From assembly GCA_965227295.1 (NCBI GenBank), contig OZ245742.1, positions 3,200,001-3,264,000 of the forward strand: 64,000 nt of DNA, given 5' to 3'. How positions within the stretch are numbered: position 1 is the first letter of the stretch; each line of letters starts with the position of its first letter. This document shows, piece by piece, positions 5,598-53,646 of the stretch. The position numbers and the translations under genes were made by a program. The notes below the pieces were generated by a model, which made no database searches, was not told the DNA's origin, and worked only from the letters and a program-made list of their open reading frames with translations. Origin of the DNA: Leptonemataceae bacterium. GTDB lineage: Bacteria > Spirochaetota > Leptospiria > Leptospirales > Leptonemataceae.

Positions 5598-5601
5598 GAA
5601 A

Positions 5602-23657: not shown

Positions 23658-23685
23658 ATTTTATTGTGCTGTGTTTTTTATTGAT

Positions 23686-24411: not shown

Positions 24412-24423
24412 CGTCATCATCCT

Positions 24424-26175: not shown

Positions 26176-26192
26176 GATTCTTTGGGGTTCTC

Positions 26193-26494
26193 GGTGGGGA
26201 ACCAACTGCCGTGGCCTCAACAAGCAGGGCCTTGCCGACACCGGACATCGGTTTGCGACTCAGCTACCGTAGCGTATCTTGCGTAATGATTTTTCCGAAA
26301 CGAAGACGCCATTCCGGTCCGCCTTGCCATGCTCCTCCGCATAACCTCCGTTCGTCAGCTGGAACCAGTTGTGACCATACCGGGCTTAATGTACACTGGC
26401 CGCCACTTACACTGGGATCCGGGACGGCCGCAGGCTACCCGAGCGTTTCCGGTAATTCAAGAGCTGCGGTTCGCACACGCGGCCGTGAGAAACA
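26193..26494 (+). repeat. Family B (~310-330 bp) repeat, solitary copy preceded by a hairpin module
   Basis: gaagacgcc.ttccggtccgcctt...cagctggaaccagttgt...ttcaagagctgcggttcg...gccgtgagaaaca matches the units at 54945-56335. Confidence 0.9.
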
Positions 26495-26711
26495 TTGTTG
26501 TTTCGCACATTAATGCAAGACGGAATCCTCCGAAAAGATGACAGAGTGTTTGCTTTCCACTGAATGCCAGGTGTTGATTGAATGTTTCACCGCGTTAGTC
26601 CCCGCTAATACGGAGTTATGGGACGAGGTCCTCGCGCGGATCCTTACATCATTCACTAATTTTTTGTGAAAATCATTTACGTCCGCACTGCCTGAGCTTC
26701 ACTGGAACGAT

Positions 26712-40064: not shown

Positions 40065-40650
40065 TTACTCCCGAGGGGCGACCGTGCGAGCGCTTTCGAT
40101 CAAGAATTCGTGCACGGAATCATCCCCCTGGGGGCCGTCGGTGATCTTGATGCGTCCGGGATAGTGTACCGTGCGGCTCCCATGGAGCTTCGTACGGCCC
40201 TCGTGAAAAAGCGCGCCGCTGTATCCTCTCAGCACTTCGCGATAGGTAAACTCGACGATCTCGGTCTGTCCAGTGTCGGCGGCAATCCATAGGACATATT
40301 GATCGTTGTTTGGATCGGGGGCGCCGCTTGTGCTGCCGGGGGCGGCAAAGACAAGATCGTAGCGCCGGCCGTCGCGAGTGCGTTCGTCCACGTGGGCGAC
40401 AATGTGCGGCGCGGTCCTGTCCTCCAGCATGGCGGCCAGGCGCAGCGGGAGTTCCAGGTAGAGATGAAAGGACTCGAGATAGAGGCTGACCTCGCCGTCG
40501 TCTTCCGCGGGGCGCGGCGCATCGCGTGCGCCGGTATAGCCACGGCCGCGGTCCACGCCGATGATCGTTCCATCCGACGTCTCCGCTTCGATAAATGTGC
40601 TGCGAGTGAATGTTAGTGAAGACACAGCCCCGTTCTCTAATTGCACGCGC
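40065..40650 (-). pseudogene. Probable 5'-truncated gene (C-terminal part of an exported/lipoprotein-type protein) abutting a repeat pair
   Basis: The coding-like 3' part (YLESFHLYLELP, YDLVF, DQYVLWI, EFTYRE) runs upstream into family B repeat DNA; no signal peptide or clear start. Confidence 0.55.
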
Positions 40651-40654
40651 AGTC

Positions 40655-41060
40655 GCCGGATTAACACTTTTGTGGGTACAGCTGGTTCCAGCTGACGCGC
40701 GGAGGTTATGCCGGGGAACGTGGTAAGGCGGACCGGAACGGCGTGTTCTTCGTAAGAAACGCTGCGATATCCGAACCGCACAACCAGCGTCCGGGTCGAA
40801 CGCCGTGTTCTTAACAAAACGAATCACCACAACTCCCGCTAAGCTGTAGCCAAAAAAACACTCCGCCATTTTGCAACTTACTTTCTGTGTCTCACGGTAA
40901 ACGTCGCGAGACAGCCGTTTTATTCGTTCGGGCACGGCCCGAACCGTGGCGCAAGTTGAGGCCAGAGTAAAGTAATCCTTTTTTGGGTACAACTGGTTCC
41001 AGTTGACGAGCGGAGGTCATGCCGGGGAACGGGGTACGGCGGACCGGAACGGCGTCTTCG
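40655..41060 (-). repeat. Family B repeat, tandem pair on the minus strand (one full, one partial)
   Basis: Reverse-complement anchors at ~41059 and ~40748 (about 311 bp apart); same internal motifs as the 55 kb array. Confidence 0.9.
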
Positions 41061-41119
41061 CCGTACGAAACGCTACGACGTTGGCGGTGCCTGTTTTGCG
41101 GGGCGGGTGTGCCTTCGTC

Positions 41120-42136
41120 TCAGGCCGCCGTGATGCCGATCTTTTTTTCGAACTCGGGATTTTCGCAAACGTACTGCGCCGCGTCGACCTGACGGTGATG
41201 ATCAAACAAGAACGTGGTGAGTTTGCCGGCAAAGCGACCGTTGTACTTCGCTTCCACGAACTTCAACCAGGCCATGACGTCCATGAGCTCGTGGCAGATG
41301 AACTCATAGTTCGTGCCGTTCGCGTCGAATTTGCTGCGGGGGTTGTAGAGCTTTTGCGCGTCGGCGAAGAGAATGTTGCGCGTGGTGACCGGATAAAACC
41401 AGCGCGCGATGCCCAGGCGGGCCAGCCAGTAAATGCGCCGGGTATCGTTGCGGAAGGACGTCGTGCGTGCGTCGCAAATGTAAGCGAAGAACTCCGGCGT
41501 AATCTCCGCGATGATGCGCTGATTGCCGACGCTTTCGCCGGGATAGCTGACCTGGTGATCCATGAGGAAACGTCGTTCGCCGTCGTCGGGTTCGAGGACG
41601 AAGTAGCCGCCGTTTTCGAAGATACCGGCGAAGGGGCGTTTGACCGTGAAGAACTTCGGCTTGCCCGTGGGGCGCAGCAGCGGTTTCGCCGCGTCCAGAA
41701 ACGGGCGGTTGCAATGATCGTACGTCGGAAAACTCGGCAGCGAAACCTCGAAGTCCGCTTCGATGCCCAGGGCGAGCAGGAAGGCGAGGACGTGTTCGAT
41801 GATCTTAATTTCCCCTAATTGAATGTTATGGGCGCCCTTGCGCGCGTGCTCCGTTTTGAGCGGGAGCATTTCCCCGTTGTAACGAAAGCCCGGATGATTG
41901 CCGAGGAGTTGCTGCTCTTCCGCGGACCGGCTGCTCCAGGGAGACACGCGAATCGTCATGGGTTTGTTTTCGAAACTGGCCATGCCGTCCACGGTAAACG
42001 GCGAGGCCAGGGTATACGTGCGATCGCGATCGAGGTTCGGTGTGGGGTCACGAAAAAACTCCGGCGGTTGCAGCGGATTCTTGTGACGTTCCGCCTGGAG
42101 GGTGCTCAGTTCTTTGCTTCGTGTTTCAATGCGCAC
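41120..42136 (-). CDS. Divergent LpxC-family (UDP-3-O-acyl-GlcNAc deacetylase-like) protein
   Basis: IIEHVLAFL, EITPEFF..I.DART, EFICHELMD correspond to LpxC TVEHL, ARTF, EFVRHKILD; GTG start 3 bp after the kinase stop. Confidence 0.75.
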   Translation of the reverse strand: MRIETRSKELSTLQAERHKNPLQPPEFFRDPTPNLDRDRTYTLASPFTVDGMASFENKPMTIRVSPWSSRSAEEQQLLGNHPGFRYNGEMLPLKTEHARKGAHNIQLGEIKIIEHVLAFLLALGIEADFEVSLPSFPTYDHCNRPFLDAAKPLLRPTGKPKFFTVKRPFAGIFENGGYFVLEPDDGERRFLMDHQVSYPGESVGNQRIIAEITPEFFAYICDARTTSFRNDTRRIYWLARLGIARWFYPVTTRNILFADAQKLYNPRSKFDANGTNYEFICHELMDVMAWLKFVEAKYNGRFAGKLTTFLFDHHRQVDAAQYVCENPEFEKKIGITAA

Positions 42137-42139: not shown

Positions 42140-43672
42140 TCAGTCCTTCGGGCGGCGTTGCTTCATCCAGTCCGGCAGCGGCGCGCTCTTCGCGTCCGGT
42201 CTCGGAGCGCTCTTCTTCGGTGCGGTTTTTTTCGTGCGTTTCGTGGTGCTCTTTTTCGCGGTACCGCCGGAGGATTTGGTTGTATGCTTCGGCTTCGGAG
42301 CCGCTTTTACCGGCTGCGCGGGTTTCGCGGGTGGCGGATCTTGTGGTTGTTGCGCACCGCCCTTGTTGCCGGCGGTCGGTTCGAACAGAAAGCTCATGAC
42401 GCCGCTCTTGATTTTATCGAAGGCGTTGTCCTCGCCTTCCGCCGGTGTCTTCGCCGGGCCGTCCTGATTTGTGCCGCTGCGAGAACTTTCGACTTCTTCA
42501 AAGAAAAAGTCGATGATGCCCTTCTGAAAGTTCTCCGCCACCGTGCTGGCGGCACCCCAACTGCCCTCGGGTTCCGGACGTTGGTGCGCGGCCGCGGCGG
42601 GCTCTGCTGCGTCGACTTCTTCCTCGTATTCTTCGTCTTCGACGAGGACGTCCTCCTGGCTCTCGTACTCCTGGACCTCATCCTCGGAGAGAGCGACCAC
42701 CTTCGAGATGATCGAAGTGTACTGTGAGTCGGCGTCGGTTTCTTCGGTGATGCGCAGCCAGCCCATGATGTCGGAGTCGCCGGCGATCTTTGCCACGGCG
42801 TTGATGCGCAGCGGGTCTTTTATGGCGCAGGCCTCGGCGAGCAGATTGGCGAGAGCCTTAATGTGCGCTGTGCGAGACTTAAGATGCTTCTTGATGATTT
42901 CGGACTGCTGCGGGTTCTCGTGATCGGCCTTTTTCAAAACGAGGCGCCGGTCGTCGTGATGTTGATCCCATACTTCGGGCTCGATGATCGCGAGCTGGAA
43001 AAGAATCGTGAGCAGCGCAAAATCGTCCAGCGTGGGGCCGAAGTTCGACTGCGTGCGCGCGGGATGCTGGTAGTCCGCCAGGCCGATCTCGGTGGCGTTC
43101 TTGCCTTCCAGGGCGGGAACGAACATGCCGTCGTAGTCGATGAGCGTGATGCGGTTGTCGTCCTGGACGAGGATGTTGCCTTCCTGCAGGTCGCCGTGGG
43201 CCATGTTCCACTGTTGCAGCGTGCGTACGACCGAGAAGATGTTGCCCGCAAACTCGGGCGCGCTCTGCATAATGCCGTCGTCCGCCAGGTCGCTGCTGAT
43301 GGCGCGATCGAGTCCGAGGCCGCGGCCCCATTCCATGACGACGGCGGGATAGTGGCTTTTGCCGACCTTGATCCCGTCCTCGACGTACTGAAAGTCCACC
43401 AGGAACGGAAACTTCGTAATCGCCAGGGTGTCGTGCAGCAGACGATAGCGTTCCGCACGACCGGGTACGTCCCGGGTGAATACCTTGAGTGCGAACTGGC
43501 GATCGTGGGCGTCCTTGAAACGAAAGACCGCTCCGAAACCGCCCACGGACATGAACGGCGCGCCACGGCGGTTGAGGAAGATCTTCATCGTCTGAGATTG
43601 AAAGAACGGGATCTGAAGATTCGCGGCGTCCATCATGGACGCCATGTAGGCACGCAGGGGAGGGTATTCCAT
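42140..43672 (-). CDS. Ser/Thr protein kinase of TerY-P triad type with acidic/low-complexity tail
   Basis: GGFGAVF, ALKVF, MEW, HGDLQEGNILV, LIDYDGMFVP, YQHP. Confidence 0.92.
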   Translation of the reverse strand: MEYPPLRAYMASMMDAANLQIPFFQSQTMKIFLNRRGAPFMSVGGFGAVFRFKDAHDRQFALKVFTRDVPGRAERYRLLHDTLAITKFPFLVDFQYVEDGIKVGKSHYPAVVMEWGRGLGLDRAISSDLADDGIMQSAPEFAGNIFSVVRTLQQWNMAHGDLQEGNILVQDDNRITLIDYDGMFVPALEGKNATEIGLADYQHPARTQSNFGPTLDDFALLTILFQLAIIEPEVWDQHHDDRRLVLKKADHENPQQSEIIKKHLKSRTAHIKALANLLAEACAIKDPLRINAVAKIAGDSDIMGWLRITEETDADSQYTSIISKVVALSEDEVQEYESQEDVLVEDEEYEEEVDAAEPAAAAHQRPEPEGSWGAASTVAENFQKGIIDFFFEEVESSRSGTNQDGPAKTPAEGEDNAFDKIKSGVMSFLFEPTAGNKGGAQQPQDPPPAKPAQPVKAAPKPKHTTKSSGGTAKKSTTKRTKKTAPKKSAPRPDAKSAPLPDWMKQRRPKD

Positions 43673-43698
43673 AAAGCTATTCCATTTTATATTAGCGA

Positions 43699-44535
43699 TT
43701 ATGACGAGTTCGGCGAATTGCCTTCCGTATTTGGAGTTGCGTCCGGGCCCGCGGGCACGGACGGCTTAAGCGGCGGCTCCGGAAAATGCAGGTCCGGCCG
43801 ATCGGTAAGACAGCAGAGGGTGACGTCGTCGTTCTTCATGCCGCGATTTTCGCGCAGGTCCCGGACAATCGTGCGAAAGTCCTCGGGGCTATGGGTGCGC
43901 AGAATGCGACGTATGAGATTGGCCGCTTCGCCCGCCGGAAGTTTGTAGAGGTACTCGCCCAGGGCATCGGAGACGAAGGCCAACAGATTCGAAGGCGAGG
44001 TGAGATGCACGTCCCGGGCGATCGTGTAGGGGCTGCCTTCCTGGAGACGCGCGTTGGAGCGGAGCATCTCCGGCGTGTTGCCGAAACCTTCCCGGGCGGA
44101 CGGCGGAAAGATGTAGTCCACCTCACCGGAACGATCGAAGACGAACAACGAGACGTCGCCCACGGCGTAGAGATTCAGACGCATGCGACCGAACCACCAG
44201 GTGGGCCGCTCGATGACGGCGGCCAGGACCGTTGCGTAACTTCCCTCCATGAGAAACTTACGCAACGCCGTGGGCCGGGAGATCTCCGGTTGAAAGGTTT
44301 CGCGCAGGGATTGCAGGCCGCTCTCGAAGTCCTCCGGTGACGTCAGCCAGGCCGAGTCGAAGCCGCGGGTGATGTGATCCGACCACTCCTTCGAGAAGAC
44401 ACCAGTGGACGCGCCGTCGGAGAGCGTGAGCATGAGCGCGCCGGTGTGGATTTTCTTAACGTAGACCGAGTCTTCGTTACGGTCCTCTTCCACGCCGGCC
44501 TTGGCGGTTTCGAATGTACGATATGCGAGGGGCAT
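43699..44535 (-). CDS. PP2C-family phosphatase (TerY-P triad type)
   Basis: NEDS, LSDGAS, YATVL, VGDVSLF, VSDALG, KNDDVT. Confidence 0.9.
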   Translation of the reverse strand: MPLAYRTFETAKAGVEEDRNEDSVYVKKIHTGALMLTLSDGASTGVFSKEWSDHITRGFDSAWLTSPEDFESGLQSLRETFQPEISRPTALRKFLMEGSYATVLAAVIERPTWWFGRMRLNLYAVGDVSLFVFDRSGEVDYIFPPSAREGFGNTPEMLRSNARLQEGSPYTIARDVHLTSPSNLLAFVSDALGEYLYKLPAGEAANLIRRILRTHSPEDFRTIVRDLRENRGMKNDDVTLCCLTDRPDLHFPEPPLKPSVPAGPDATPNTEGNSPNSS

Positions 44536-44552
44536 GTTTCTTTCCTTTTTTT

Positions 44553-44655
44553 ACTCCGAGGACCGAGGTTTTGCGGGGAGGGCGATCGTAGCTGGAAAGC
44601 GAGCAGGCTATGATCACTCTCTGTTTTTGTTTCTCGGTACCTCGGTCCTCGGAGT
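44553..44655. repeat. Perfect 17 bp inverted repeat between the vWA and PP2C genes
   Basis: actccgaggaccgaggt (44553-44569) / acctcggtcctcggagt (44639-44655). Confidence 0.85.
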
Positions 44656-44661
44656 GGAAAA

Positions 44662-45441
44662 TTAACTCTTCAATCTCGTTCCAATGTCGAAGAACTTCGA
44701 AAGATCCTCCGGCTTCGCGTTGAACATGTAGCCCCGTGCTCCGGCGGTGACGCTCGGGTACTTTTCCTGCGCGCGTTCCAGAAAGGAATCGGGCAGGACG
44801 GTGGACATGTTGAACAGGCCCTTCGCGAACTCACTCGTGGTGGGCTCGTCATCCGGGAACGCCAGCGCGCCGCCGGTGTCGCTGGAGATGTGGATGTTCA
44901 TGACGATCACGGGTCCGTCGTCGGTGTAGACGTCCGCCATAATGGACTGAGCCGTCGCCACGGGATTGTCCGCGGTCCACTGTCCGTCGCTCACGTGAAT
45001 CAAGACCGGCGGGAACGACGCCTTATGTCCGGCGCACCAGCTCGACAGGTCTTTCTTCGCGTGCTGGAAGCCGGCCTCCATGTCGGTGTTCCATTCCCGC
45101 GTCGGATCGTCGACCCACACGGGCTTCTGAATCTGGATGCCGTCCAGTTCCATGGTGCCCAGGGACTTCGGATTGTTCGCCAGATCGATGACGGACTGGA
45201 TGGGCAGCAGATCCACGGTGCCTTCGCCGTAACCGATCATGCCGATCTCGAAGTAGGCGCGGATCTCGTCGCCCTTTTCACACGAGAGGATCAACTGGTC
45301 GATGGCGTCGTTGGTGATCTGCGCCAGGTACTGGCCCTTGGTCTTGCCGGAATTCGCGTACTGCTCGGACATGGAATACGAACAGTCGACGAGAAAGAGA
45401 ATCAAGGCGGGGTTGTTGCGAGATATCTCGGCTGTATACAT
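44662..45441 (-). CDS. vWA-domain protein (TerY-like)
   Basis: YTAEISRNNP, MIDAS DCSYS, TDM, VSDG; AGGAG RBS. Confidence 0.92.
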   Translation of the reverse strand: MYTAEISRNNPALILFLVDCSYSMSEQYANSGKTKGQYLAQITNDAIDQLILSCEKGDEIRAYFEIGMIGYGEGTVDLLPIQSVIDLANNPKSLGTMELDGIQIQKPVWVDDPTREWNTDMEAGFQHAKKDLSSWCAGHKASFPPVLIHVSDGQWTADNPVATAQSIMADVYTDDGPVIVMNIHISSDTGGALAFPDDEPTTSEFAKGLFNMSTVLPDSFLERAQEKYPSVTAGARGYMFNAKPEDLSKFFDIGTRLKS

Positions 45442-45468
45442 GCGTTTCTCCTGAGTGATTGTGAAAGT

Positions 45469-46254
45469 TTATGACTGCTGATTGCCTTTGAGTTTGTCCA
45501 CCAGGGTCTTCAAGGAAGCGGCCACCTCGGAGTGCGCTTTCTCGAATGCGGCCCGGACCTCGACGGTTTGTTCCTGGGCCCGTCCGGCGTTGATGCCCAT
45601 GTCGATTTTCTTTTGCTTGAGCTGTTCGATCTCGGCCTGGAGTTCCTGGATCTTCTTTTCGTTCTCGGCGATTTTCGCGTCGATTTCGGACTGGCGCTTG
45701 TGCGGATCCTTAATGTTTTCTTCGTAGAACTTATCCAGTTCCTTTTCGAACTGCGCCTTCTGGACGGCCATGACCTTTTCGTAGTGGCGATAGTTGGCGA
45801 TGAGCGTGTTCTTCGTAACCCGCATGGTTTCCGCGGAGAGCAAGGCCGTCTGCAGGGCCTCGCCCTCGTTTTTACCCTCACCGATGAATCGTCGGTAGAG
45901 CTCCTGGAATTCGAAGAAGTCGAAGCCCGGCAGGTTCTCCGCTTCCAGAGCGCGGTTCAGGCTTTCGATGAACTCTCTGTAAACCTTTTCGCTGTGTTCC
46001 GGAGACGACGGAGCACCGGACGCGTTCTCGGAAGACTGTGTGCCGGAAGCGGAACTGCCGGCACGACGGATGACCGAGGACGACGGCGTGCTCGGCGAAT
46101 TGCCGGCGGCGGGATCAGCGGGATCGCTCGTGGCCGCCCCGCCCGGATCTTCGGCGGGGTCCTCGGAGACCGCGCCCGCGGACGGCGGCGTCGGCGGCAC
46201 GGTGCTGCCGCCCTCTTCGAAGATCAGGTTCATAAATCGATCAAAAATGGCCAT
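45469..46254 (-). CDS. Coiled-coil hypothetical protein with N-terminal amphipathic helix
   Basis: MAIFDRFMNLIFEE, low-complexity linker, NLPGFDFFEF, long heptad-rich C-terminus. Confidence 0.85.
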   Translation of the reverse strand: MAIFDRFMNLIFEEGGSTVPPTPPSAGAVSEDPAEDPGGAATSDPADPAAGNSPSTPSSSVIRRAGSSASGTQSSENASGAPSSPEHSEKVYREFIESLNRALEAENLPGFDFFEFQELYRRFIGEGKNEGEALQTALLSAETMRVTKNTLIANYRHYEKVMAVQKAQFEKELDKFYEENIKDPHKRQSEIDAKIAENEKKIQELQAEIEQLKQKKIDMGINAGRAQEQTVEVRAAFEKAHSEVAASLKTLVDKLKGNQQS

Positions 46255-46279
46255 AACATCATCTCAGCAAACATTAGAA

Positions 46280-47119
46280 TCAAACCCGCCCGTCGCCCGG
46301 GTCCAGGTTCATGATCGTTTGTTCGAGAAACTCCACCACCTCTTTGAATTTTTTCGATTTCTTGAACGCCGGCGGGCGGTCGTGCACCGGCTCGTCGATT
46401 TTCACGCGCTCCACGATGGAACCCGGGTTCGCTCGCATCACCCAGATCTCGTCCGCGAGGTAGACCGCTTCGGTGAGATCGTGAGTGACCATAAAAAACA
46501 CGGTATGCGGATGCTTGCGCGCCAGGTCCAGAAAGATCTTTTTGATCAGCAGTTCCATGTCCAGCTTCGTGCGGACATCCAGTTTGCCGAAAGGCTCATC
46601 CAACAGGAGCAGCGACGGATTCGACATGAGGCTGCGGGCGATGGCCACGCGCTGGAGTTGCCCGCCGGAGAGATCGGGCATCTTGCTGTACTTTTGCGCA
46701 TGCTCTTCCAGGCCGACCAACTGTAACATTTCCGTGGCGCGTTCGTAGCGTTCTTTGCGCGGCACGCCCTGGACTTCCAGCGCGAAGGCGACGTCGTCGA
46801 TGACCTGCCGCCACTCGAAACCCATGGGCGTTTGAAACACCATGCCGATGCCCTGATTGCCCATCACACGTCGCTCGTTGATATAGATGTGACCGCCGGT
46901 GGGTTCCTGCAGGCCGGCAATGCAACGCAGGATCGTCGACTTGCCGCAGCCGGACGGTCCGAGCAAAACGATGAAGCGCCCGGCCTCGCCCTCGATCAAA
47001 AAGTTCACGCGATCGAGCACGACAATCGCCGAGCCGTCGTCGCGTCTGTAGGTTACGGTTAGATCTTCCGCGCGGACAATGTCCGGCAAATCGGTGTCGA
47101 TGAATTCCACCAGGCTCAT
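46280..47119 (-). CDS. ABC transporter ATP-binding protein (NitT/TauT type)
   Basis: GPSGCGKS, LSGGQLQRV, LLLDEPF, VTHD. Confidence 0.96.
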   Translation of the reverse strand: MSLVEFIDTDLPDIVRAEDLTVTYRRDDGSAIVVLDRVNFLIEGEAGRFIVLLGPSGCGKSTILRCIAGLQEPTGGHIYINERRVMGNQGIGMVFQTPMGFEWRQVIDDVAFALEVQGVPRKERYERATEMLQLVGLEEHAQKYSKMPDLSGGQLQRVAIARSLMSNPSLLLLDEPFGKLDVRTKLDMELLIKKIFLDLARKHPHTVFFMVTHDLTEAVYLADEIWVMRANPGSIVERVKIDEPVHDRPPAFKKSKKFKEVVEFLEQTIMNLDPGDGRV

Positions 47120-47937
47120 GCCGACGTCTCCCGGCTGTACTTGTGCGGAAAGAACACGCGGTCTAAATACAGAAACGATCGGTCCTGCAGGTATCCGATC
47201 AGGACGACCGTAAACAGAAGCGCGAACATCCAGTCCGGTCGCGAGTTACGCTGGGCGAGCCACATGAGCGCGCCGATGCCGCCGACGTTCGGATCGAACT
47301 CGCTGCCGCGGTTGAGCATCTCCGCGATCGTAATGTAGGTCCAGGACACCGCTACAATCACGCGGATGTCGCCGAAGATGTTCGAGAACGCGGCGGGCAC
47401 GAGTACTTTGAAAACGATCTGGACTTTCGAAGCGCGCAACGACTTCGCCGTATCCACGAGTTGTTCGTGCACCTGGTCGATGCGATCCACCACCAGCGGC
47501 AACAGATATACGATGATGCCCACCGCCAGGAACATGATCTTCATGGTACTGAAGATACCGAAGTACAGAATAAACAAACCCGTCAGCGCGTTGATGGGCA
47601 GGTAGCGCGCGGCGTCGATGTAGGGTTTCAGCAAGAAGCGTACAAACGGAACCGCGCCCATGGCGACACCGATCACCATGCTGAACGTGATGGCGATGGC
47701 GTAGCCGCTGAAATTTAAGAAGAGCGAGTAGAGGACGTTCCGGAGCAGGGCGTGCTGGACGTGCAATTCCGGGAACGCGAAGAAGACGCCCACCGGAGAC
47801 GGTAGAATCTGCGGGGCGATGAAGCCACCCACCGTAAACAACGACCAGATGAAAACTAAGAGGACGAGCCCCGCGATCTGCACTCCCAGGGACTCGAGCC
47901 GGGAAGGAGTACCGCGGGGCGTAAAGAGTTCCGACAT
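47116..47937 (-). CDS. ABC transporter permease (NitT/TauT type)
   Basis: ILPSP, RYLPINAL, LVDTAKSLRAS (EAA loop), WTYITIAEM; overlaps both neighbours. Confidence 0.95.
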   Translation of the reverse strand: MSELFTPRGTPSRLESLGVQIAGLVLLVFIWSLFTVGGFIAPQILPSPVGVFFAFPELHVQHALLRNVLYSLFLNFSGYAIAITFSMVIGVAMGAVPFVRFLLKPYIDAARYLPINALTGLFILYFGIFSTMKIMFLAVGIIVYLLPLVVDRIDQVHEQLVDTAKSLRASKVQIVFKVLVPAAFSNIFGDIRVIVAVSWTYITIAEMLNRGSEFDPNVGGIGALMWLAQRNSRPDWMFALLFTVVLIGYLQDRSFLYLDRVFFPHKYSRETSA

Positions 47938-49511
47938 TACTGCTGAACCACGATGTCCGTGCGTCGATTGGCGGCCCGGCCCACGGCCGTGGCGTTGGTG
48001 AGCAGCGGTTTATCCGGACCGTTGCCGACGACGATGAACTTGTCCGCGTCGAACTCGTAGTTCTGCACCAGGTAATCGCGCACGGACTCGGCGCGTTTCT
48101 GCGACAGGGCCACGTTCGTGGCGCGGCTGCCCGTGTTGTCCGTGTTACCCTCTATGCGAATGCGTGCCTTGCCGGCACCGCGGATCATGGGCACGACTTC
48201 TTTTAAGATGATCGTTTGCGCCGCGCCGGAAATGGAAGCGCTGCCCGTGGCGAAGTTGATCGTCACCGGCTTCGATGCGATGATCGTCGGGTTGTCGATT
48301 TCGTCCTGGGTGGGGGCTTCGAATTCCAGGCTCTCGGCGTAGTGCCGGTCGCCGGTAAGGTTGATGCTGCGAATGAACGTAACATCGGAGATGACTCGCC
48401 ACGGCGGGGCGTTCCGTGCGAGACCGACGCTCGCGTAGACCTCGGTCATGCGCCGATAGAGATCTTCGCCGGTGTTGCCGGTGCGACCGAAGAAGTTCAC
48501 GTTGTCGCCGTAGGTCGTGAGCCGCACGTTGTTGATGGCGTTCTCACAGAAATCCCGCGGCATCTGGAGACCTTCCGTGAGGATGTCGACGGCTTCCTGT
48601 TTCGCGCTGTCGCTGGAATTGATTTCGGCCGCGCCGATCATCCAGCCGGCGACCAGGGCCTGGGTTTCGGCGGGATACTGGCGCAGGAACTCCTCTTTCG
48701 CGAAGAACACGTCGGCAATGATGTGTGACGCCTGTTTCGTGGAGACCAATCGCTTCGAGCCGGGCACGGCTTCGACGCAGGCGTCGTCGTCCGGCGACCA
48801 GACCACGGCGGCGTCCACGCTGCCGGTCTTAAACGTTTCCGCGGCTTTGATGGCATCGGAGACGGGGACCAGCGTTACGTCCTTCTGGCTCATGCCGCCG
48901 GAATCGAGCAGCCACAACAGAAACGTATGCGAGGGGGTCCCCTGGGCGAAGGCGATCTTCTTGCCGCGCAGGTTTGAAACCGTATCGATACCGGGCCGCA
49001 CCACGATCACGTCGCCGCCGCGGGACCAGTCGGCCTGGAAGACGACTTTTGGTTTGTAAGGGGCGAGGCCGGCGCTTTCCGTCGGGAAGGCGTCGATGGT
49101 GGTCCACAGGAAATCAACGTCGCCGTTTTTCCAGGCGGCCCGCGACGCGTCGAAGTCGTCATTCACCACGAACTCCACTTCGATGCCGAATTCTTTTTTG
49201 TACATCGAGTCCGGGTTGGGACGGAAGCCGCGGTTGAAGTACTGACCGCCGGCGTAACCGCCCCAGGTGACGACGCCCACACGGATCGGCCGGCCCAGGG
49301 GATCGCCGGGATTTTCCAGCTTGCGCGCGTTCGGGTTGCCCGCGTCGGGATCATAATCCCCGCCGGAACCCGCGGCCTTGAAGATGCCCGAGGGCACGTC
49401 CCCGCCGTACGAAACGGACGGCGCGTAGGACCAGATGAGCCAGCCCAGGCCGAGAACGATGGCCAGGATGATTAAGAACTTCGGTAACGGTTTGAGTCTG
49501 CGTTGTGCCAT
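47937..49511 (-). CDS. Membrane-anchored ABC solute-binding protein (NMT1/SsuA-like) fused to an OmpA-type peptidoglycan-binding domain
   Basis: N-terminal TM; WGGYAGG, DWSRGGD, LRGKKIA, DAAVVWSP; C-terminal NFATGSA, IEGNTDNTG, LSQKRAESV, ANRRTD. Confidence 0.92.
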   Translation of the reverse strand: MAQRRLKPLPKFLIILAIVLGLGWLIWSYAPSVSYGGDVPSGIFKAAGSGGDYDPDAGNPNARKLENPGDPLGRPIRVGVVTWGGYAGGQYFNRGFRPNPDSMYKKEFGIEVEFVVNDDFDASRAAWKNGDVDFLWTTIDAFPTESAGLAPYKPKVVFQADWSRGGDVIVVRPGIDTVSNLRGKKIAFAQGTPSHTFLLWLLDSGGMSQKDVTLVPVSDAIKAAETFKTGSVDAAVVWSPDDDACVEAVPGSKRLVSTKQASHIIADVFFAKEEFLRQYPAETQALVAGWMIGAAEINSSDSAKQEAVDILTEGLQMPRDFCENAINNVRLTTYGDNVNFFGRTGNTGEDLYRRMTEVYASVGLARNAPPWRVISDVTFIRSINLTGDRHYAESLEFEAPTQDEIDNPTIIASKPVTINFATGSASISGAAQTIILKEVVPMIRGAGKARIRIEGNTDNTGSRATNVALSQKRAESVRDYLVQNYEFDADKFIVVGNGPDKPLLTNATAVGRAANRRTDIVVQQ

Positions 49512-49557
49512 AACTTTTACTGATTTTACTTTAGTGTTTTGAGTGATGCGCCGCGAT

Positions 49558-50610
49558 TCAGGCCCCGGAGCGGGCCCGGGACTGGTTTTCCTGCCGGAAG
49601 CGTGCGAAGACGTCGTGATACTTGCCGCCCTCGCTGCCCAGATCCTCGGCGACGCTGTCGGCCGGTTTGCTGTCGAGGTGCGGGTCGGCCTTCACTTCCC
49701 GGCCGCCGAGATTTACGGAGCCGGTCTGCTCCCAGGTTTCGAGCATGCGCAGCCCCTTGTCCAGAGCCACCTCGTCCTTGAAGTCCAGGTTCTCCATGAT
49801 GTTCGAAGAAATGCGTAAGTAATTTTCGATTTGTCCGAGTTTTTCACCGACGTCTTTTTCAACGTAATCCTTCGCCATCTCGAAGAACTCGTAGTCCACG
49901 CCGCTGCCGGAGAGGGCGCCGGTCGCCTGAGACATGGCCTTCGAGGCGGCGCGCATGCTTTCGAACTCCATCTCCGTAACTTTGATCTCTTCTTTGAGAT
50001 CGTCGATGGAAATGCCCACGGCGTCGTCGACCTTGGCGAGAATCCCCAGTAAGTGTTCCAGGCGTTCGGCCAGGGGGCCCAGGCGCTGGTTTACGCTTTC
50101 CAGGCGGCCGGCCGTGCGCGTATGCAGTTGCACCTGGCGGTCGCGGCCGGTCTTTTTGGCGACGCTCGCCTTGTGCATGGAAAGTTCGATTTGTTTGCTG
50201 TTACTGGATATGACCTTGTTCAGGCGGCCGCGCACGCCGGCGACTTTCGAGATCTGACTTTGCAGATCTTCCTGCTTGTCGCGCAAAGCGTCGAGGTAGT
50301 TCTTCATGATGCCGATGGGATCGATCTCGATGAAGAGGCCCGTGAGGAAGCGCATGACGCTCTTGTAGCCGTGCCAGATGAGTCTCCGGAAACGTTTGTC
50401 GAGAGCCACGTAGATGATGGCCGCGAGAGCCACGCCCAGGATGGCGGCATAGAGCGCGTTCTGCAAGAGGACGATGATGAACGGCAAAAGAAAGAACAGG
50501 CCGATCCCCGCGCCGATGACAATCAGCGCCAGAAAGAACATGCCGGTCTTGCCTTCCGGGCGTTTCCAGAAAGAGAGGGGATCTTTGCCGTCGTGGATGG
50601 AGTTGTCCAT
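49558..50610 (-). CDS. Two-TM coiled-coil protein, PspA/IM30-like
   Basis: Two hydrophobic helices, then EIDPIGIMKNYLDALRDK (compare PspA EDPxxxL) and long heptad helices. Confidence 0.8.
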   Translation of the reverse strand: MDNSIHDGKDPLSFWKRPEGKTGMFFLALIVIGAGIGLFFLLPFIIVLLQNALYAAILGVALAAIIYVALDKRFRRLIWHGYKSVMRFLTGLFIEIDPIGIMKNYLDALRDKQEDLQSQISKVAGVRGRLNKVISSNSKQIELSMHKASVAKKTGRDRQVQLHTRTAGRLESVNQRLGPLAERLEHLLGILAKVDDAVGISIDDLKEEIKVTEMEFESMRAASKAMSQATGALSGSGVDYEFFEMAKDYVEKDVGEKLGQIENYLRISSNIMENLDFKDEVALDKGLRMLETWEQTGSVNLGGREVKADPHLDSKPADSVAEDLGSEGGKYHDVFARFRQENQSRARSGA

Positions 50611-50640: not shown

Positions 50641-51483
50641 TTAGGCCTGATTTTTCGCGCTGCGAAAGACGTCGGTGGCGTCGAAGAACTCGGTGTCGTG
50701 CACGCGCAGGCGGCGAGACTCCCCGCGCAGATACGTCTCCACGGCGAGGTGTTCCCACCAGGCCGCCATGGCCATGCAGACCGCGAAGTAGCCGCGAATG
50801 AAACGGTGGATGTTCTCGCCGTCGATGTAGGGGGCGATGCTGTTCTTCAGTCCTTCCTCGTGGCCGATCTCAAAGTCCTTGTGGCCGTCGATGTAAAGGT
50901 TCGTGAGGCTGCCCTTACGCAAGTCGTCGTTCAGCAGTTCTTTGTAGCGCCGGACGAACTTGTCCAGAATGCGAAACTCGGCGATGGCCGTACCTTCGAA
51001 GGCCAGCAGGGCGCCGGCGGAGTAGGCGTTGTCGTCGTGCTTGAAAATGTTGCGCATTTTTTCGAGGAAGCTGCGCGTTACGGCGGAATAGGTGACGCCG
51101 TCCGTTTCGATGCCCAGATCCAGCCGGTAGCCCTGACGCATCATTTCTAAGTGCGGAATGTGTTTCGTTTCGGAGCCCTTTTCTTCGGCGATGTTGTGTT
51201 CGATCTCTTTCTTGAGTTCCGGCCAGTCGTGGTTACGGATCATGGCGTCGAGGAGCATGTGGATGGCCTCGTTCGAAAAACCGGAGTACTCCACAATGAC
51301 GAAAGCAAGCTGCTGGTGATCCCAGTCCATCATGGAGCGGACAACGGCGTTGTCCTCGGGATTCAACGTGGTGAAAACTTCGTCGCGATACTTCTGCAGC
51401 ATCGGAACGGCCTCGTCGTAGGTCCTGGGATGTTTTTCGAGGAACTCTGCGATCGTACGACTGACGCGGGAAAAGTCGATCAT
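50641..51483 (-). CDS. Heme-oxygenase-like diiron oxidase family protein (CADD/PqqC-like fold)
   Basis: NIAEEKG...PHLEM, LLAFEG, YIDGHKDFEIGH pattern of Glu/His ligands; start ATG 51483. Confidence 0.8.
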   Translation of the reverse strand: MIDFSRVSRTIAEFLEKHPRTYDEAVPMLQKYRDEVFTTLNPEDNAVVRSMMDWDHQQLAFVIVEYSGFSNEAIHMLLDAMIRNHDWPELKKEIEHNIAEEKGSETKHIPHLEMMRQGYRLDLGIETDGVTYSAVTRSFLEKMRNIFKHDDNAYSAGALLAFEGTAIAEFRILDKFVRRYKELLNDDLRKGSLTNLYIDGHKDFEIGHEEGLKNSIAPYIDGENIHRFIRGYFAVCMAMAAWWEHLAVETYLRGESRRLRVHDTEFFDATDVFRSAKNQA

Positions 51484-51559
51484 GTCCGGATACCGTGGGG
51501 GATGGGATGAGTCGCGCCAAAACGCGGCCACCCCAGGGTCCCGGGCGAACAGCATCGCG

Positions 51560-52549
51560 TCAAATGAAATTCCCGACGTCTTTGATCGACGCCGCCGCGC
51601 GGAACACGGAGAGAAGGCGCTCCAGGCCCACGGCTATGCCGCTGCACTCCGGCAGGCCGGGGTCTTCCAGCGCGGCGAGCAGGCGACCATCGGCCGTCAT
51701 CAGCGGCTTGCCCAGGCGCCGGCGGAGTTCGTTTTCGTACGCGAAGCGACGGCGGTGTTCGGCAACGTCGCTTAACTCAAAGTAGCCGTTGCCGAGTTCA
51801 AAGCCGTTCCAGTAGATCTCGAAGCGCCGCGCCCGGCCGTCCTCGACCCGGGCCAGGGCTGCAAGTTCCGGCGGATAATCGTACACGAACTCCGGGACGC
51901 CGCGACCCAGGTGCGGCTCCACAAGATTCAGGAAGACGGTGAAGAAGATTTCATCGTACAACCAGTCGGAAAGATCGCCGTCTCCGGCCAGGCGCCGGTC
52001 CCGGACGCAGCGTTCCAGGTCCGCGCGTTCCCAGGAGCGAAGACCGGCGAATTCGGCGAGGAGATCCAGGACCCGTCGCCGTGGAAAGCGGTCGTTCGGG
52101 ATCTGCGCTGCCGTCTCCGGCACGGCGAAGTCCCGGCCGAGTTCGCGGAACAGGGCCTCGCATTGATCCATGAGGGCGAATTCGTCGGCGCCGACCAGGT
52201 ACCATTCGAGCATCAGGAACTCTTCAGAATGGAGCCGGCCGGTATCCCCCTCGCGGAAGCAGTGGGCGATCTGATAGACGGACCGCCGCAGTTCCGTGAG
52301 GAGAATCTTCATATTATACTCCGGGCTCGTGATCAAATAGCCGGCCCGGGCATCGGTCGGCGGCGGGGCCTCCGGGCTCTTCCGAACACCGGCGCGCTGA
52401 ACGGAAAAGGAGTCCAGGTGAGCTTCCACCGCCCCGTGGACGTTCAGGAGAGGGGTCTCCACTTCCAGGAAGCCCTGCTGATCGAAGAATTTCCTGATGG
52501 CGGCGCGAAACTCGTGCTGGAGCCGGACCCGTTCGAGAAGATCGGACAT
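51560..52549 (-). CDS. epmA: EF-P lysine aminoacylase EpmA (GenX/PoxA)
   Basis: FLEVETP, LITSPEYNMK, CFREGD.GRLH..EFLMLEWY, RFEIYW.GFELGNG, SGIAVGLERL; no anticodon-binding domain. Confidence 0.95.
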   Translation of the reverse strand: MSDLLERVRLQHEFRAAIRKFFDQQGFLEVETPLLNVHGAVEAHLDSFSVQRAGVRKSPEAPPPTDARAGYLITSPEYNMKILLTELRRSVYQIAHCFREGDTGRLHSEEFLMLEWYLVGADEFALMDQCEALFRELGRDFAVPETAAQIPNDRFPRRRVLDLLAEFAGLRSWERADLERCVRDRRLAGDGDLSDWLYDEIFFTVFLNLVEPHLGRGVPEFVYDYPPELAALARVEDGRARRFEIYWNGFELGNGYFELSDVAEHRRRFAYENELRRRLGKPLMTADGRLLAALEDPGLPECSGIAVGLERLLSVFRAAASIKDVGNFI

Positions 52550-52620: not shown

Positions 52621-52650
52621 TTGACAAAATTGTCGCAGCCTGGTTACTTT
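52621..52650 (+). promoter_or_regulatory. Possible sigma70 promoter of the sigma-factor gene
   Basis: Perfect TTGACA at 52621 and TACTTT 18 bp downstream. Confidence 0.45.
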
Positions 52651-52692
52651 GTCAGAACCGCATGCGGCAAGAAGCCCCAGGATCACATCATT

Positions 52693-53646
52693 ATGGAAAA
52701 TAAGACAATGACCCTCGCACCCGAACAAGCAGTGGAGGCCGATCAACAAACGGCATCTCAGGCAATTTCCGGAGGCAAGACTGGGATCGCCGCGAAGAAG
52801 CGCCGCAAGACCAGCGTGGAAGCCAACGATAACATTCTGAACTGGTACCTGAACGAAATCCACAAGATCCCCATGCTCACCCGGGAGCAGGAAACCGACG
52901 TGGCCGAAAAAGCCCGGGACGGAGACCAGCGGTCGCGGGATCTCCTGGTCCGCTCTAACCTGCGTTTTGTCGTGACCGTGGCCCGGCGCTATCAGTCATA
53001 CGGCCTCACCATGATGGACCTCATCAACGAGGGGAATCTCGGGCTCATCAAGGCGGCGGAGAAGTTCAACCCGGACCGCGGCTTTCATTTTATCTCGTAC
53101 GCGGTGTGGTGGATCAAACAGTCGATCCTCTTCGCCATCCAGCAGAAGTCCCATCTCATTCGCCTGCCGTTGAATCGCACGGCGGAGCTGCGTCGCCTGG
53201 AAGAAGCCGAGCGCTGGATCGACAACCAGGACGGCATGGACAGCACCGTCGAAAGCCTGGCCCAGGTTCTCGACATGAAGACGGAAGACCTCGCGCACCT
53301 CATGACCATGAGCCGGGATCACCTCAGCCTGGACGCGCCCATGGCGGACGGCGAAGATTTTTCCCTGGGCGACAACATCGAAGACGCGAGCGCCGTTTTG
53401 CCGGAAGATAAAATGGAATTCAGCGATCTGCGTCGGGAAATCGACACCTGCATGGACGGCCTCACGAAACGCGAGCGCAAGGTGCTGGCCATGCGCTTCG
53501 GCCTCGGCGGCGGCCCGGTCCTTTCGCTGCAAAAGATCGGCAAACGCATCGGCCTTTCGAAAGAGCGTATCCGCCAGATCGAGAAAAAGGCCATCCGCAA
53601 AATGCGCACCGGCGAGTGCGGTCAGTACTTAATGGCGTATTTATGA
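52693..53646 (+). CDS. RNA polymerase sigma70 factor, RpoD/RpoS-like, lacking region 1.1
   Basis: YLNEIHKIPMLTREQE, NLRFVV, DLINEGNLGL, FISYAVWWIKQ, SKERIRQIE; ATG 52693. Confidence 0.93.
   Translation: MENKTMTLAPEQAVEADQQTASQAISGGKTGIAAKKRRKTSVEANDNILNWYLNEIHKIPMLTREQETDVAEKARDGDQRSRDLLVRSNLRFVVTVARRYQSYGLTMMDLINEGNLGLIKAAEKFNPDRGFHFISYAVWWIKQSILFAIQQKSHLIRLPLNRTAELRRLEEAERWIDNQDGMDSTVESLAQVLDMKTEDLAHLMTMSRDHLSLDAPMADGEDFSLGDNIEDASAVLPEDKMEFSDLRREIDTCMDGLTKRERKVLAMRFGLGGGPVLSLQKIGKRIGLSKERIRQIEKKAIRKMRTGECGQYLMAYL

Follow-up and report, generated by a model that had tools for sequence, protein, structure and literature searches.

The TerY-P triad, in which a vWA protein is combined with a PP2C phosphatase and with a Ser/Thr kinase, was reportedly described by Anantharaman, Iyer and Aravind in 2012. 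It was also defined by Gao et al. 2020 (summary in PMC7699616). According to the literature, the three genes alone protect P. aeruginosa from Autographiviridae; the triad is considered a stand-alone phosphorylation switch, with protection against T7-like phages shown elsewhere, and it also acts as an accessory of other systems, e.g., CoCoNuT types II and III-A. The OB or zinc-ribbon domain of TerY-P kinases is thought to bind nucleic acid.

A second set of relevant systems combines ESCRT-III-like proteins with ABC transporters. Ravi et al. 2024 (mSystems, PMC11237479; section 18 and Table S3) describe an operon type closely similar to a part of the locus considered here, exemplified by OGG56892.1 of Candidatus Handelsmanbacteria, and the authors suggest there membrane remodelling linked to solute transport. 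In huge phages, 15 PspA genes adjoin complete ABC systems, and PspA-type genes of phages larger than 200 kb also lie beside SBP-like genes and often beside TerD and vWA genes, as stated in a preprint by Yuan and Chen 2026 (bioRxiv 10.64898/2026.10.24.761521). Both sets of genes adjoin each other in the window, i.e., the whole stretch of 64,000 nucleotides that was analysed. We regard them as two already-described modules that are probably separable neighbours, not one new system.

Organization of the locus

All eight ORFs of the interval 42140..50610 are present on the minus strand, and the coordinates, spacing and inverted repeat given for them in the earlier note were reproduced. The boundaries proposed there hold for the eight genes; the co-oriented, tightly spaced run that encloses them is longer, comprising 11 genes from EpmA to an LpxC-like gene. 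EpmA (51560-52549, co-oriented, minus strand) opens the run; 4 bp separate its end from a CADD-like/heme-oxygenase-like gene (50641-51555), which in turn ends 30 bp before the start of the gene for an ESCRT-III/PspA-like protein, TMCC. Gaps of 46 bp (TMCC/SBP-OmpA), 25 bp (ATPase/CC2), 27 bp (CC2/TerY, between the modules), 126 bp (TerY/PP2C, containing the inverted repeat) and 26 bp (PP2C/kinase) separate the following genes, with overlaps of 1 bp at the SBP-OmpA/permease and 4 bp at the permease/ATPase junction. Spacing by itself cannot delimit a system here, since it equally takes in EpmA and the LpxC-like gene. GC content is even over all 11 genes (0.58-0.64), and no terminator-like site was found between the two modules.

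The divergent LpxC-like gene (41120..42136, minus strand; Pfam LpxC 1.7e-13) lies 3 bp past the kinase gene and is a flanking backbone gene belonging to neither module. Its homologues with a named source (9 of 26) come from Leptospira, Leptospirales and other spirochaetes, plus one "bacterium". The remaining genes of the window are housekeeping ones (SecA, RF3, aconitase, PGK); no further defence matches were found among them, placing the TerY-P triad outside any defence island. An Rfam scan of the window returned no riboswitch or any other Rfam family.

The gap between the TerY and PP2C genes holds a stem-loop (44547..44661, minus strand) built from a 23-nt inverted repeat whose arms (44547-44569 and 44639-44661) are 91% complementary. 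The repeat is unique within the window (2 matches against 0.19 expected), and the sense-strand RNA is predicted to fold with -51.9 kcal/mol (z = -6.5). It is not terminator-like, as the sense strand continues with an A-run instead of a U-run.

TMCC and its helical partner CC2

TMCC (49558..50610, minus strand) is predicted to consist of an N-terminal two-TM hairpin, corresponding to a hydrophobic stretch at residues 20-74, and a cytoplasmic ESCRT-III/PspA-like helical domain. Searches against Pfam and NCBIfam gave zero family matches, including PF04012 (PspA_IM30) and Snf7, and its alignment profile (A1) retrieved no PspA or Vipp1 among PDB sequences (best E 0.18); PF04012 was found in 7 of 120 TMCC relatives among the matches listed. 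The AF2 model is of moderate confidence (mean pLDDT 72.9, rising above 90 across residues 110-190). Its first 13 Foldseek matches are all Vipp1 or PspA, followed by ESCRT-III proteins; the best one is Vipp1 7o3w_A (E 2.9e-4, 213 columns, TM-score 0.58 on target), and PspA 7abk, CHMP1B and Snf7 are also among the top matches. The modelled TMCC thus has an ESCRT-III fold with a long helical hairpin and following helices. The label "PspA-like" is used here because of the two-TM stretch, the AlphaFold model and the Foldseek matches, which bear out the earlier reading of a 2-TM PspA-like coiled coil despite the silence of Pfam and NCBIfam.

The gene CC2 (45469..46254, minus strand) encodes a protein with a short N-terminal helix, a disordered S/T/P-rich linker of 80 residues and, at the C-terminus, a helical domain that contains a GFDxxEF motif. 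Its AF2 model (pLDDT 78.5) comprises a small helical bundle and a 110-residue helix; a fold search with this model produced no significant match (best E 1.6), and CC2 is unrelated to TMCC by hhalign. The family is conserved (alignment A2), so that what had been listed simply as a coiled-coil protein is a genuine family with a helical model and with homologues encoded upstream of TMCC.

Transporter genes and the heme-oxygenase-like enzyme

The gene at 47937..49511 (minus strand) encodes a putative signal-anchored periplasmic SBP of the NMT1/SsuA/TauA type that carries a fused OmpA-C domain for peptidoglycan binding. The protein has a hydrophobic N-terminus (residues 6-33), Pfam matches to OmpA (9.2e-18), NMT1 (1.8e-9) and Phosphonate-bd (2.9e-8), an NCBIfam match to SsuA_fam (4.4e-22, under the cut-off), and PDB matches to OmpA-like domains and to 3e4r, 2x26 and 6ssy. 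It is followed by a type-I ABC importer permease resembling SsuC/TauC/SaoP (47116..47937, minus strand; Pfam BPD_transp_1 4e-16; NCBIfam SaoP 6.1e-27 and SsuC 1.1e-20, both under cut-offs) and by a TauB/SsuB-like ABC ATPase (46280..47119, minus strand; Pfam ABC_tran 9.8e-29; NCBIfam taurine ATPase 7.4e-54, under the cut-off). The ATPase retains intact Walker A (GPSGCGKS at 54), signature (LSGGQ at 150) and Walker B (LLLDEP at 171) motifs. Judging from these domains, the three proteins have the composition of a NitT/TauT-type type-I ABC importer, the substrate of which cannot be named, since every NCBIfam equivalog score is below its cut-off.

The gene at 50641..51555 (minus strand) encodes a CADD-like/heme-oxygenase-like di-iron enzyme (Pfam DUF3865 5.8e-31, Haem_oxygenas_2 6.3e-8; PDB match 3b5o, "CADD-like protein", 2.6e-22) and is a possible accessory of the transporter-containing module. 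In four Bacteroidota loci, another PF14518/TenA-like gene stands between permease and ATPase; its product has no pairwise similarity to the CADD-like protein of the window.

Conservation of the cassette in Bacteroidota and megaphages

We surveyed the best 80 of 555 confirmed TMCC relatives (35-42% identity to TMCC); all 80 loci belong to distant Bacteroidota and none to the window's own clade. In 61 of these 80 loci, and in both phage loci described below, the gene immediately upstream of TMCC is a CC2 homologue. SBP-OmpA follows TMCC in 23 of the 80 (21 of the 68 with at least 2 kb downstream), a permease is present in 8-9, and an ATPase match in 12-13, 8 of which are near-full-length, downstream of TMCC and in SBP-OmpA loci. 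Among the 19 SBP-OmpA loci with at least 6 kb downstream, a permease is nearby in only 7 and an ATPase in only 6. In a quick tree, all SBP-linked TMCCs (21/21) fall within a single clade of 42 rows (SH-aLRT 100).

Megaphage Lak-B7 possesses the whole cassette, CC2-TMCC-SBP-OmpA-permease-ATPase, in co-orientation. Its CC2 and TMCC were matched by hhalign (98.8%, E 4.5e-17 and 99.9%, E 1.1e-35, respectively), its SBP-OmpA is 38% identical across 465 residues (E 1.6e-88), and the permease and ATPase match with E 8e-35 and 8e-40; TMCC matches were found in 15 Lak records. Ralstonia jumbo phage RsoM2USA encodes CC2 (94.3%), TMCC (100%, E 1.9e-40) and an NMT1_3 SBP, with no transporter within 20 kb of the ESCRT-III-like pair. 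As judged from these neighbourhoods, the genes for TMCC, SBP-OmpA, permease, ATPase and CC2 form a cassette, a unit that occurs without TerY-P.

The TerY-P triad

The next three genes form a predicted TerY-P triad, matching the vWA, PP2C and kinase profiles of PADLOC models PDLC02222-02224, which were used together with the Gao et al. 2020 definition. This assignment had been made earlier from the sequence and is confirmed by the PADLOC profiles, all three of which match strongly, although the Pfam matches are weak. The TerY-like vWA protein (44662..45441, minus strand; PADLOC TerY 5.9e-58, Pfam vWA E 0.0024) has an intact MIDAS with DxSxS at 19-23; D19, S21, S23, T119 and D152 are invariant across 17 homologues. 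Its ribosome-binding site, AGGAGA, is located 5 nt ahead of the ATG. The PP2C-family phosphatase (43699..44535, minus strand) matches PADLOC PP2C over residues 11-243 (1.3e-20) and Pfam PP2C_2 under the cut-off (5.8e-4, 19.9 bits).

The Ser/Thr kinase of the TerY-P type (42140..43672, minus strand; PADLOC STK_OB 7.7e-50, Pfam Pkinase 2.5e-9, 37.3 bits) has its kinase domain at approximately residues 40-290. It contains GGFGAV at 44, ALK at 61-63, HGD..N at 159-166 and DYD at 179, which we take to be the G-loop, Lys63 and the HGD..N and DYD catalytic motifs. The STK_OB profile is matched at positions 1-280 of 562 only; past residue 290 there is no Pfam domain, neither an OB fold (Gao type) nor a zinc ribbon (CoCoNuT type), and the protein ends with an acidic stretch and a K/P/A-rich tail. 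Its closest representatives carry C-terminal FGE-sulfatase or Lcl_C modules, or a similar tail.

Linkage of the two modules and alternative explanations

Homologues of TerY, PP2C and the kinase are absent from all 80 surveyed Bacteroidota loci (best 80 of 555; tblastn E<=1e-5, phmmer E<=0.1) and from both phage loci within +/-20 kb (tblastn E<=1e-3). Only two other contigs are likely to carry relatives of both TMCC and TerY, as deduced from equal contig size and source: one of 281,909 bp (TMCC 63%, TerY 69% identity) and one of 12,311 bp (TMCC 53%, TerY 65%). The TerY subfamily comprises 29 clusters at 58-75% identity, 13 of them on contigs 12 kb or longer; a TMCC relative is found on an equal-sized contig for only 2 of these 13 and for none of the other 11. 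The 26 LpxC-like homologues all lie on contigs that differ in size from those of the TerY and TMCC relatives; as none occurs on the 281,909- or the 12,311-bp contig, the TMCC/TerY pairing may outlast the flank. The neighbourhood survey that the earlier note had called for thus recovered CC2 and SBP-OmpA beside TMCC, but not vWA, PP2C and kinase genes in Bacteroidota or phages, and the idea of both modules working as one system loses ground. The juxtaposition is limited to a narrow Leptospirales-like clade, and its simplest and rather probable explanation is neighbourhood, possibly with co-transcription; functional coupling of the modules seems unlikely, though far from negligible.

The first module (about 51555-45469) is an envelope cassette centred on membrane-anchored TMCC and its soluble partner CC2, joined to a peptidoglycan-tethered NMT1/SsuA-type SBP and a type-I ABC permease/ATPase, perhaps with the heme-oxygenase-like enzyme as an accessory. 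Starting from the gene associations and folds observed, we infer the following mechanistic steps. SBP-OmpA, bridging the space from the inner membrane to the cell wall, may report or capture a periplasmic ligand, and the ABC pair may import it or spend ATP on signalling its presence. TMCC and CC2 could assemble there on the cytoplasmic face and stabilise or reshape the inner membrane. The second module (45441-42140) is a TerY-P triad of MIDAS vWA, PP2C phosphatase and Ser/Thr kinase; in this kinase, a disordered basic tail has replaced the OB fold usually found at the C-terminus.

The transporter genes could alternatively serve plain nutrient salvage, with SBP, permease, ATPase and heme-oxygenase-like enzyme forming a NitT/TauT-type importer of a sulfonate, pyrimidine or similar compound and the ESCRT-III-like pair merely adjacent. 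The best matches of the SBP (SsuA/TauA/NrtA), permease (SsuC/TauC) and ATPase (TauB) fit this role, as do the intact ATPase motifs, the TenA/PF14518-type enzyme inside the transporter operon of four Bacteroidota loci and the CADD-like neighbour here. We nevertheless consider it improbable: TMCC and SBP-OmpA are neighbours in two bacterial phyla as well as in Lak megaphages, import needs no peptidoglycan-binding domain on the SBP, and the window contains no riboswitch or other Rfam family. Moreover, SBP-OmpA stays next to TMCC without a permease (12 of 19 Bacteroidota loci) or without an ATPase (13 of 19) within 6-10 kb. Together with the transporter-less SBP of RsoM2USA, this lends some support to the earlier suggestion that SBP-OmpA is more than a part of a nutrient importer.

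A composite system, in which the TerY-P switch was recruited to the ESCRT-III/ABC cassette in this clade, is a less probable reading than separable neighbours. The triad would sense metal, phage or envelope damage and phosphorylate the S/T-rich linker of CC2, or TMCC, turning remodelling on or off; alternatively, a defence response might act through the cassette as its effector. Such a reading could draw on the two further contigs inferred to carry both modules, the 27-bp CC2-TerY junction with its good ribosome-binding site, the lack of any terminator-like site between the modules, the 80-residue disordered CC2 linker, the use of TerY-P as an accessory elsewhere, and the PspA-TerD-vWA neighbourhoods reported in the preprint on huge phages; a kinase without an OB fold or zinc ribbon may also have a different target. 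However, triad genes are lacking at every surveyed Bacteroidota and phage cassette locus, 11 of the 13 TerY clusters on longer contigs have no TMCC companion, S/T/P-rich linkers also occur in long-form CC2 of Bacteroidota and Lak phage with no kinase nearby, and the spacing argument would draw in EpmA and the LpxC-like gene as well. There is a small chance that this spirochaete-like clade captured TerY-P as the cassette's regulator, or the cassette as TerY-P's effector. If true, phage or envelope damage would elicit a phosphorylation-gated remodelling of membranes, which would be the first identifiable output for TerY-P; with the cassette also present in megaphages, this envelope machinery would be contested by phage and host alike.

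Comparison with known systems

The earlier note knew of no description of the two modules as one system. We likewise found no paper joining an ESCRT-III/ABC module to TerY-P in the literature searched, but the former module by itself closely resembles the TM-Snf7/PspA + PBPB-OmpA ABC operon of PMC11237479 and is not new. The window shares with that operon, as given in the sections cited above, a TM-anchored ESCRT-III-like protein, an SBP joined to OmpA, a permease and an ABC ATPase, all co-oriented, and with its Salinibacter example a coiled-coil third protein. By their descriptions alone, TMCC would correspond to "SIG+TM+Snf7" and CC2 to the "Rmar_0091 coiled-coil" of Ravi et al. 2024. Unlike the operon presented there, the window has neither a separate soluble PspA nor a (double) AAA+ ATPase in Pfam scans of the called ORFs, and the gene order differs.

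The Lak-B7 cassette places an ESCRT-III-like gene by an ABC system, as in the neighbourhoods of Yuan and Chen 2026, and the cassette of huge phages may already have been described by these authors; section 9 of the preprint names neither the CC2 partner nor the OmpA fusion. With TerY-P the window shares adjoining, co-oriented MIDAS vWA, PP2C and Ser/Thr kinase genes; it differs from the Gao type in a kinase without OB fold or zinc ribbon, and from known TerY-P loci in its position outside a defence island. With the classical Psp/Lia systems (PspFABC, LiaIHGFSR) it shares, according to the TMCC model, an effector of ESCRT-III fold probably acting at the inner membrane. No PspB, PspC, PspF, LiaI/F or two-component partner adjoins the cassette, and TMCC would be permanently anchored via two TM helices, whereas the Psp/Lia effectors attach via an amphipathic helix.

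Locus Organization

The eight minus-strand ORFs described in the earlier note were all found where it placed them. Five of them form the first module and encode TMCC, a two-TM ESCRT-III/PspA-like protein (49558..50610), SBP-OmpA, an NMT1/SsuA-type binding protein fused to an OmpA-C domain (47937..49511), an ABC permease (47116..47937), an ABC ATPase (46280..47119) and CC2, a helical partner protein (45469..46254). The remaining three form the TerY-P triad, composed of a TerY-like vWA protein (44662..45441), PP2C (43699..44535) and a Ser/Thr kinase (42140..43672). The spacing was confirmed: in gene order, 46 bp separate the first two genes, the next two junctions are overlaps of 1 bp and 4 bp, and the remaining gaps measure 25, 27, 126 and 26 bp. 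Also confirmed was the 23-nt inverted repeat (44547-44569 / 44639-44661), which lies in the 126-bp gap that separates the vWA gene from PP2C. This repeat has no second instance in the window, and its sense-strand RNA has a folding energy of -51.9 kcal/mol (z = -6.5 against shuffles); since it is followed by an A-run, the stem-loop is not terminator-like.

The co-oriented run exceeds the eight genes first noted and comprises 11 genes, from EpmA to an LpxC-like gene. EpmA (51560-52549, minus) is separated by 4 bp from a CADD-like/heme-oxygenase-like gene (50641-51555, minus), which in turn ends 30 bp before TMCC; the LpxC-like gene (41120-42136, minus), very divergent in sequence (Pfam LpxC, 51 bits), starts 3 bp past the kinase. 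These three genes are packed as closely as the others, and therefore the limits of a system cannot be drawn here from tight spacing alone. The 11 genes are uniform in GC content (0.58-0.64). The remaining genes of the window are housekeeping ones (SecA, RF3, a class-I aminoacyl-tRNA synthetase, aconitase, PGK). No Rfam families were detected in the window, and a scan for minus-strand promoters at 39.6-53.8 kb, uninformative for this organism, found none.

We considered the LpxC-like gene as a possible fourth TerY-P gene and rejected it. Among its 26 homologues, nine carry a source name, and these come from Leptospira species, Leptospirales or other spirochaetes, plus one record given simply as "bacterium"; no homologue at all lies on a contig of a size matching that of a TerY relative. 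These spirochaete sources and the lack of matching contigs mark it as a backbone gene and indicate that the window probably comes from a Leptospirales-like organism. The protein has no sequence match in PDB, and the gene is a lineage-specific paralogue.

Two non-coding copies of a 106-nt direct repeat, 87% identical to each other, lie downstream of the LpxC-like gene (40662-40767 and 40973-41078) and have no Rfam match. At 0.50, the third-position GC of a 290-aa ORF overlapping this repeat region (40120-40992, minus) falls below the 0.76-0.83 of its neighbours; the ORF has no family match and is probably not a gene. On the other side, a sigma-70 family factor (52621-53646, plus) is divergent from EpmA, and its match to the PADLOC model MzaA (4.5e-44) is confined to positions 433-657 of the 683 in the profile, where the C-terminal, sigma-like portion of MzaA lies. 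Only a domain is matched, and the gene does not represent a defence system. No defence model other than those of the triad had any further match in the window.

Proteins of the First Module

SBP-OmpA contains an OmpA domain (Pfam, 9.2e-18) and also matches NMT1, Phosphonate-bd and NMT1_2; the closest solved binding proteins are of the SsuA, TauA and NrtA type. The permease and ATPase belong to the Pfam families BPD_transp_1 and ABC_tran, respectively. Their best NCBIfam models are SsuC/TauC/SaoP and TauB/SaoA, every one scoring under the curated cut-off. The Walker A, signature and Walker B motifs of the ATPase are intact.

TMCC possesses a hydrophobic stretch fit for two TM helices. It matches no Pfam or NCBIfam family, and a profile of its relatives retrieved no PspA or Vipp1 among PDB sequences; PF04012 was found in 7 of the 120 TMCC relatives listed. 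The AlphaFold model has a pLDDT of 72.9, exceeding 90 across residues 110-190. The top 13 Foldseek matches to this model are all Vipp1/PspA (best E 2.9e-4), followed by CHMP1B, Snf7 and Asgard ESCRT-III proteins. The description "PspA-like" proposed earlier is thus valid at the level of fold but not of sequence family. ESM Atlas matches to TMCC are unnamed clusters, one of them half viral, and a search against plasmids gave no match.

CC2 belongs to a conserved family; a short helix at its N-terminus is joined by a disordered, S/T/P-rich linker to a helical domain at the C-terminus. A fold search with CC2 returned nothing significant, and its ESM Atlas matches are Bacteroidota clusters only, all unnamed. 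A relationship between CC2 and TMCC themselves was rejected (hhalign probability 13%). Judging from gene order, we infer that CC2 may bind TMCC.

Distribution in Bacteroidota

A profile built from 27 TMCC relatives and run against a species-representative genome set yielded at least 555 confirmed loci and at least 599 stretches, and the best 80 of these loci were examined with 10-kb flanks. All 80 belong to Bacteroidota (Saprospiraceae, Lewinellaceae, Haliscomenobacter and similar), with 35-42% identity; the window's own clade contributed none. In tblastn (E<=1e-5), TMCC was detected in 80 of the 80 loci, CC2 in 47, SBP-OmpA in 32 (with both domains in 23), the permease in 9 and the ATPase in 12. 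The corresponding phmmer counts (E<=0.1, 1142 called ORFs) were 78, 61, 33, 8 and 13 loci, TMCC ORFs being called in 78 of 80 loci (L070 and L076 were dropped). TerY, PP2C, the kinase, the CADD-like protein and the LpxC-like protein were found in 0/80 loci by tblastn and in none by phmmer; EpmA was likewise absent in tblastn (0/80) and gave one weak phmmer match (E 0.0021).

ORF clustering placed a CC2 homologue immediately upstream of TMCC in 61/80 loci. In the 68 loci that extend at least 2 kb downstream, TMCC is followed by SBP-OmpA 21 times. Where an SBP-OmpA locus extends 6 kb or more downstream (n = 19), the permease is present in seven cases and the ATPase in six. In a quick-method tree of 84 TMCC rows (P0004 and P0007, two close TMCC relatives, omitted), all 21 SBP-linked TMCCs fall into one 42-row clade with SH-aLRT 100, and the window clade forms a long branch separate from all Bacteroidota TMCCs.

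Four loci (L008, L020, L043, L065) carry a PF14518/TenA-like heme-oxygenase-like gene between the permease and the ATPase. The CADD-like gene just upstream of TMCC in the window is another member of the same Pfam family. The two proteins have no pairwise similarity, so that a shared accessory role rests on the Pfam superfamily only.

In 11 Bacteroidota loci (L006, L028, L029, L031, L034, L052, L053, L056, L062, L078, L080), another, paralogous CC2-TMCC pair lies immediately after the genes for SbcD and SbcC. Its CC2 is short (183 aa), without the N-terminal linker. Several single genomes contain both SbcD/SbcC-linked and SBP-OmpA-linked pairs.

Homologues in Huge Phages

A tblastn search of a phage collection with TMCC gave 16 records, of which 15 are from Lak megaphages and one is the Ralstonia jumbo phage RsoM2USA. 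RsoM2USA (MG752970.1) encodes CC2, TMCC and a binding-protein region at 2357-7233 of locus L081 (gp57-gp52). Its homologues of TMCC and CC2 are gp54 (hhalign 100%, E 1.9e-40) and, immediately upstream, gp55 (94.3%, E 1e-7), and gp52, two genes past TMCC, is an NMT1_3-type binding protein without an OmpA domain. A Ro60/TROVE-vWA protein and a 2H phosphoesterase are encoded just upstream of this pair.

The Prevotella phage Lak-B7 (MK250026.1; read with translation table 15) carries the whole cassette of five genes at 19701-27068 of locus L083, all co-oriented, in the order CC2, TMCC, one small ORF, SBP-OmpA, three small ORFs, permease, ATPase; the four small ORFs are unassigned. CC2 is of the long form (hhalign 98.8%, E 4.5e-17) and is followed by TMCC (99.9%, E 1.1e-35); SBP-OmpA (527 aa) is 38% identical to the window protein over 465 residues (E 1.6e-88), and the permease and ATPase match with E 8e-35 and 8e-40, respectively. 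TerY, PP2C and kinase matches are absent within +/-20 kb in both RsoM2USA and Lak-B7. With occurrences free of TerY-P in phages and in two bacterial phyla, the cassette represents a self-contained mobile unit. A recent preprint reports 189 PspA genes in huge phages, 15 of them adjoining complete ABC systems, with TerD and vWA genes common near huge-phage PspA (Yuan & Chen 2026, bioRxiv).

The TerY-P Triad

Identification of the vWA, PP2C and kinase genes as a TerY-P triad was borne out by PADLOC models (5.9e-58 for TerY, 1.3e-20 for PP2C, 7.7e-50 for the kinase). The MIDAS residues of TerY are invariant across 17 homologues, and kinase motifs are present in the Ser/Thr kinase. The latter aligns with the STK_OB profile over positions 1-280 of 562 only; an acidic stretch and then a K/P/A-rich one make up its own C-terminus. 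We hypothesize that a nucleic-acid-binding C-terminus has been swapped here for a basic disordered tail. The closest 50%-identity representatives of the kinase are P0216 and P0217 (of similar size), P0218 (359 residues) and FGE-sulfatase or Lcl_C forms. Two of the representatives, P0219 and P0220, are 52-55% identical to the window kinase over the kinase half and bear a C-terminal FGE-sulfatase or Lcl_C (DUF1566) domain, which suggests that the sensor end is exchangeable within this TerY-P subfamily. TerY has three distant matches in plasmids (26-37% identity). Published accounts describe the triad as attached to other conflict systems and also as a stand-alone defence.

Relationship between the Two Modules

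The earlier note proposed that the two modules act as a single system. TMCC has seven close relatives (52-69% identity), and for five of these the contig measures at least 12 kb. Close TerY clusters number 29 (58-75% identity, the next being at 39% or lower), 13 of them on contigs of this size; those with names come from Leptospirales, Spirochaetota, Desulfobacterales and Schekmanbacteria MAGs. Two pairs of TMCC and TerY relatives apparently share a contig, P0006/P0126 (281,909 bp) and P0008/P0133 (12,311 bp), with the same source. Both genes would thus be present on two of the five TMCC contigs and two of the 13 TerY contigs, co-location being deduced from the coinciding size of the longest contig, a measure that says nothing of order or adjacency and is blind for multi-contig clusters. 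As none of the 26 LpxC-like homologues lies on a contig of matching size, the TMCC-TerY pairing may outlast that flank, and this possible persistence is the best point favouring coupling. The 27-bp junction between CC2 and TerY, the S/T-rich linker in CC2 and the frequent travel of TerY-P with other systems are also consistent with it. Set against these two relatives, TerY, PP2C and kinase genes accompany TMCC in none of the 80 Bacteroidota loci, the best of at least 555, and in neither phage locus. We consider coupling in the window's clade unlikely, and the joined modules are weakly supported as a functional unit. Most likely, TerY-P would operate as a phosphorylation switch of its own.

Possible Function and Comparison with Described Systems

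The core of the first module is the CC2-TMCC dyad, often extended by a peptidoglycan-tethered binding protein and less often by an ABC pair, and independent of TerY-P in the 80 Bacteroidota and two phage loci examined. We speculate that TMCC is anchored in the inner membrane and holds its ESCRT-III-like domain on the cytoplasmic side, and that CC2 regulates it or co-assembles with it. SBP-OmpA could bridge the inner membrane to the cell wall, supplying a periplasmic input which the ABC pair would import or signal. The tie of CC2 to TMCC in 61/80 loci and two huge-phage groups, the frequent retention of the binding protein beside this dyad without a nearby transporter, and the Lak cassette together point to an envelope function for this ABC-type binding protein instead of a nutritional one, in line with the non-nutrient role suggested earlier.

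The cassette offers a defined three-to-five-gene set for testing the membrane positioning of bacterial ESCRT-III proteins. Were the two modules coupled, this locus would also provide a handle on the TerY-P mechanism; if they are only neighbours, it is one more example of two described modules.

A literature search of limited reach found no papers naming "TerY", "PspA" and "PP2C" together. Ravi et al. 2024 (PMC11237479) describe a Salinibacter operon with the order PspA, coiled-coil protein, TM-Snf7, and propose that membrane remodelling is linked to solute transport. The observations of the earlier note are confirmed, and its interpretation is supported in part. The join, which the earlier note regarded as undescribed, is apparently new in print, as far as this search can tell. 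Each of its halves belongs to a type of module described before.
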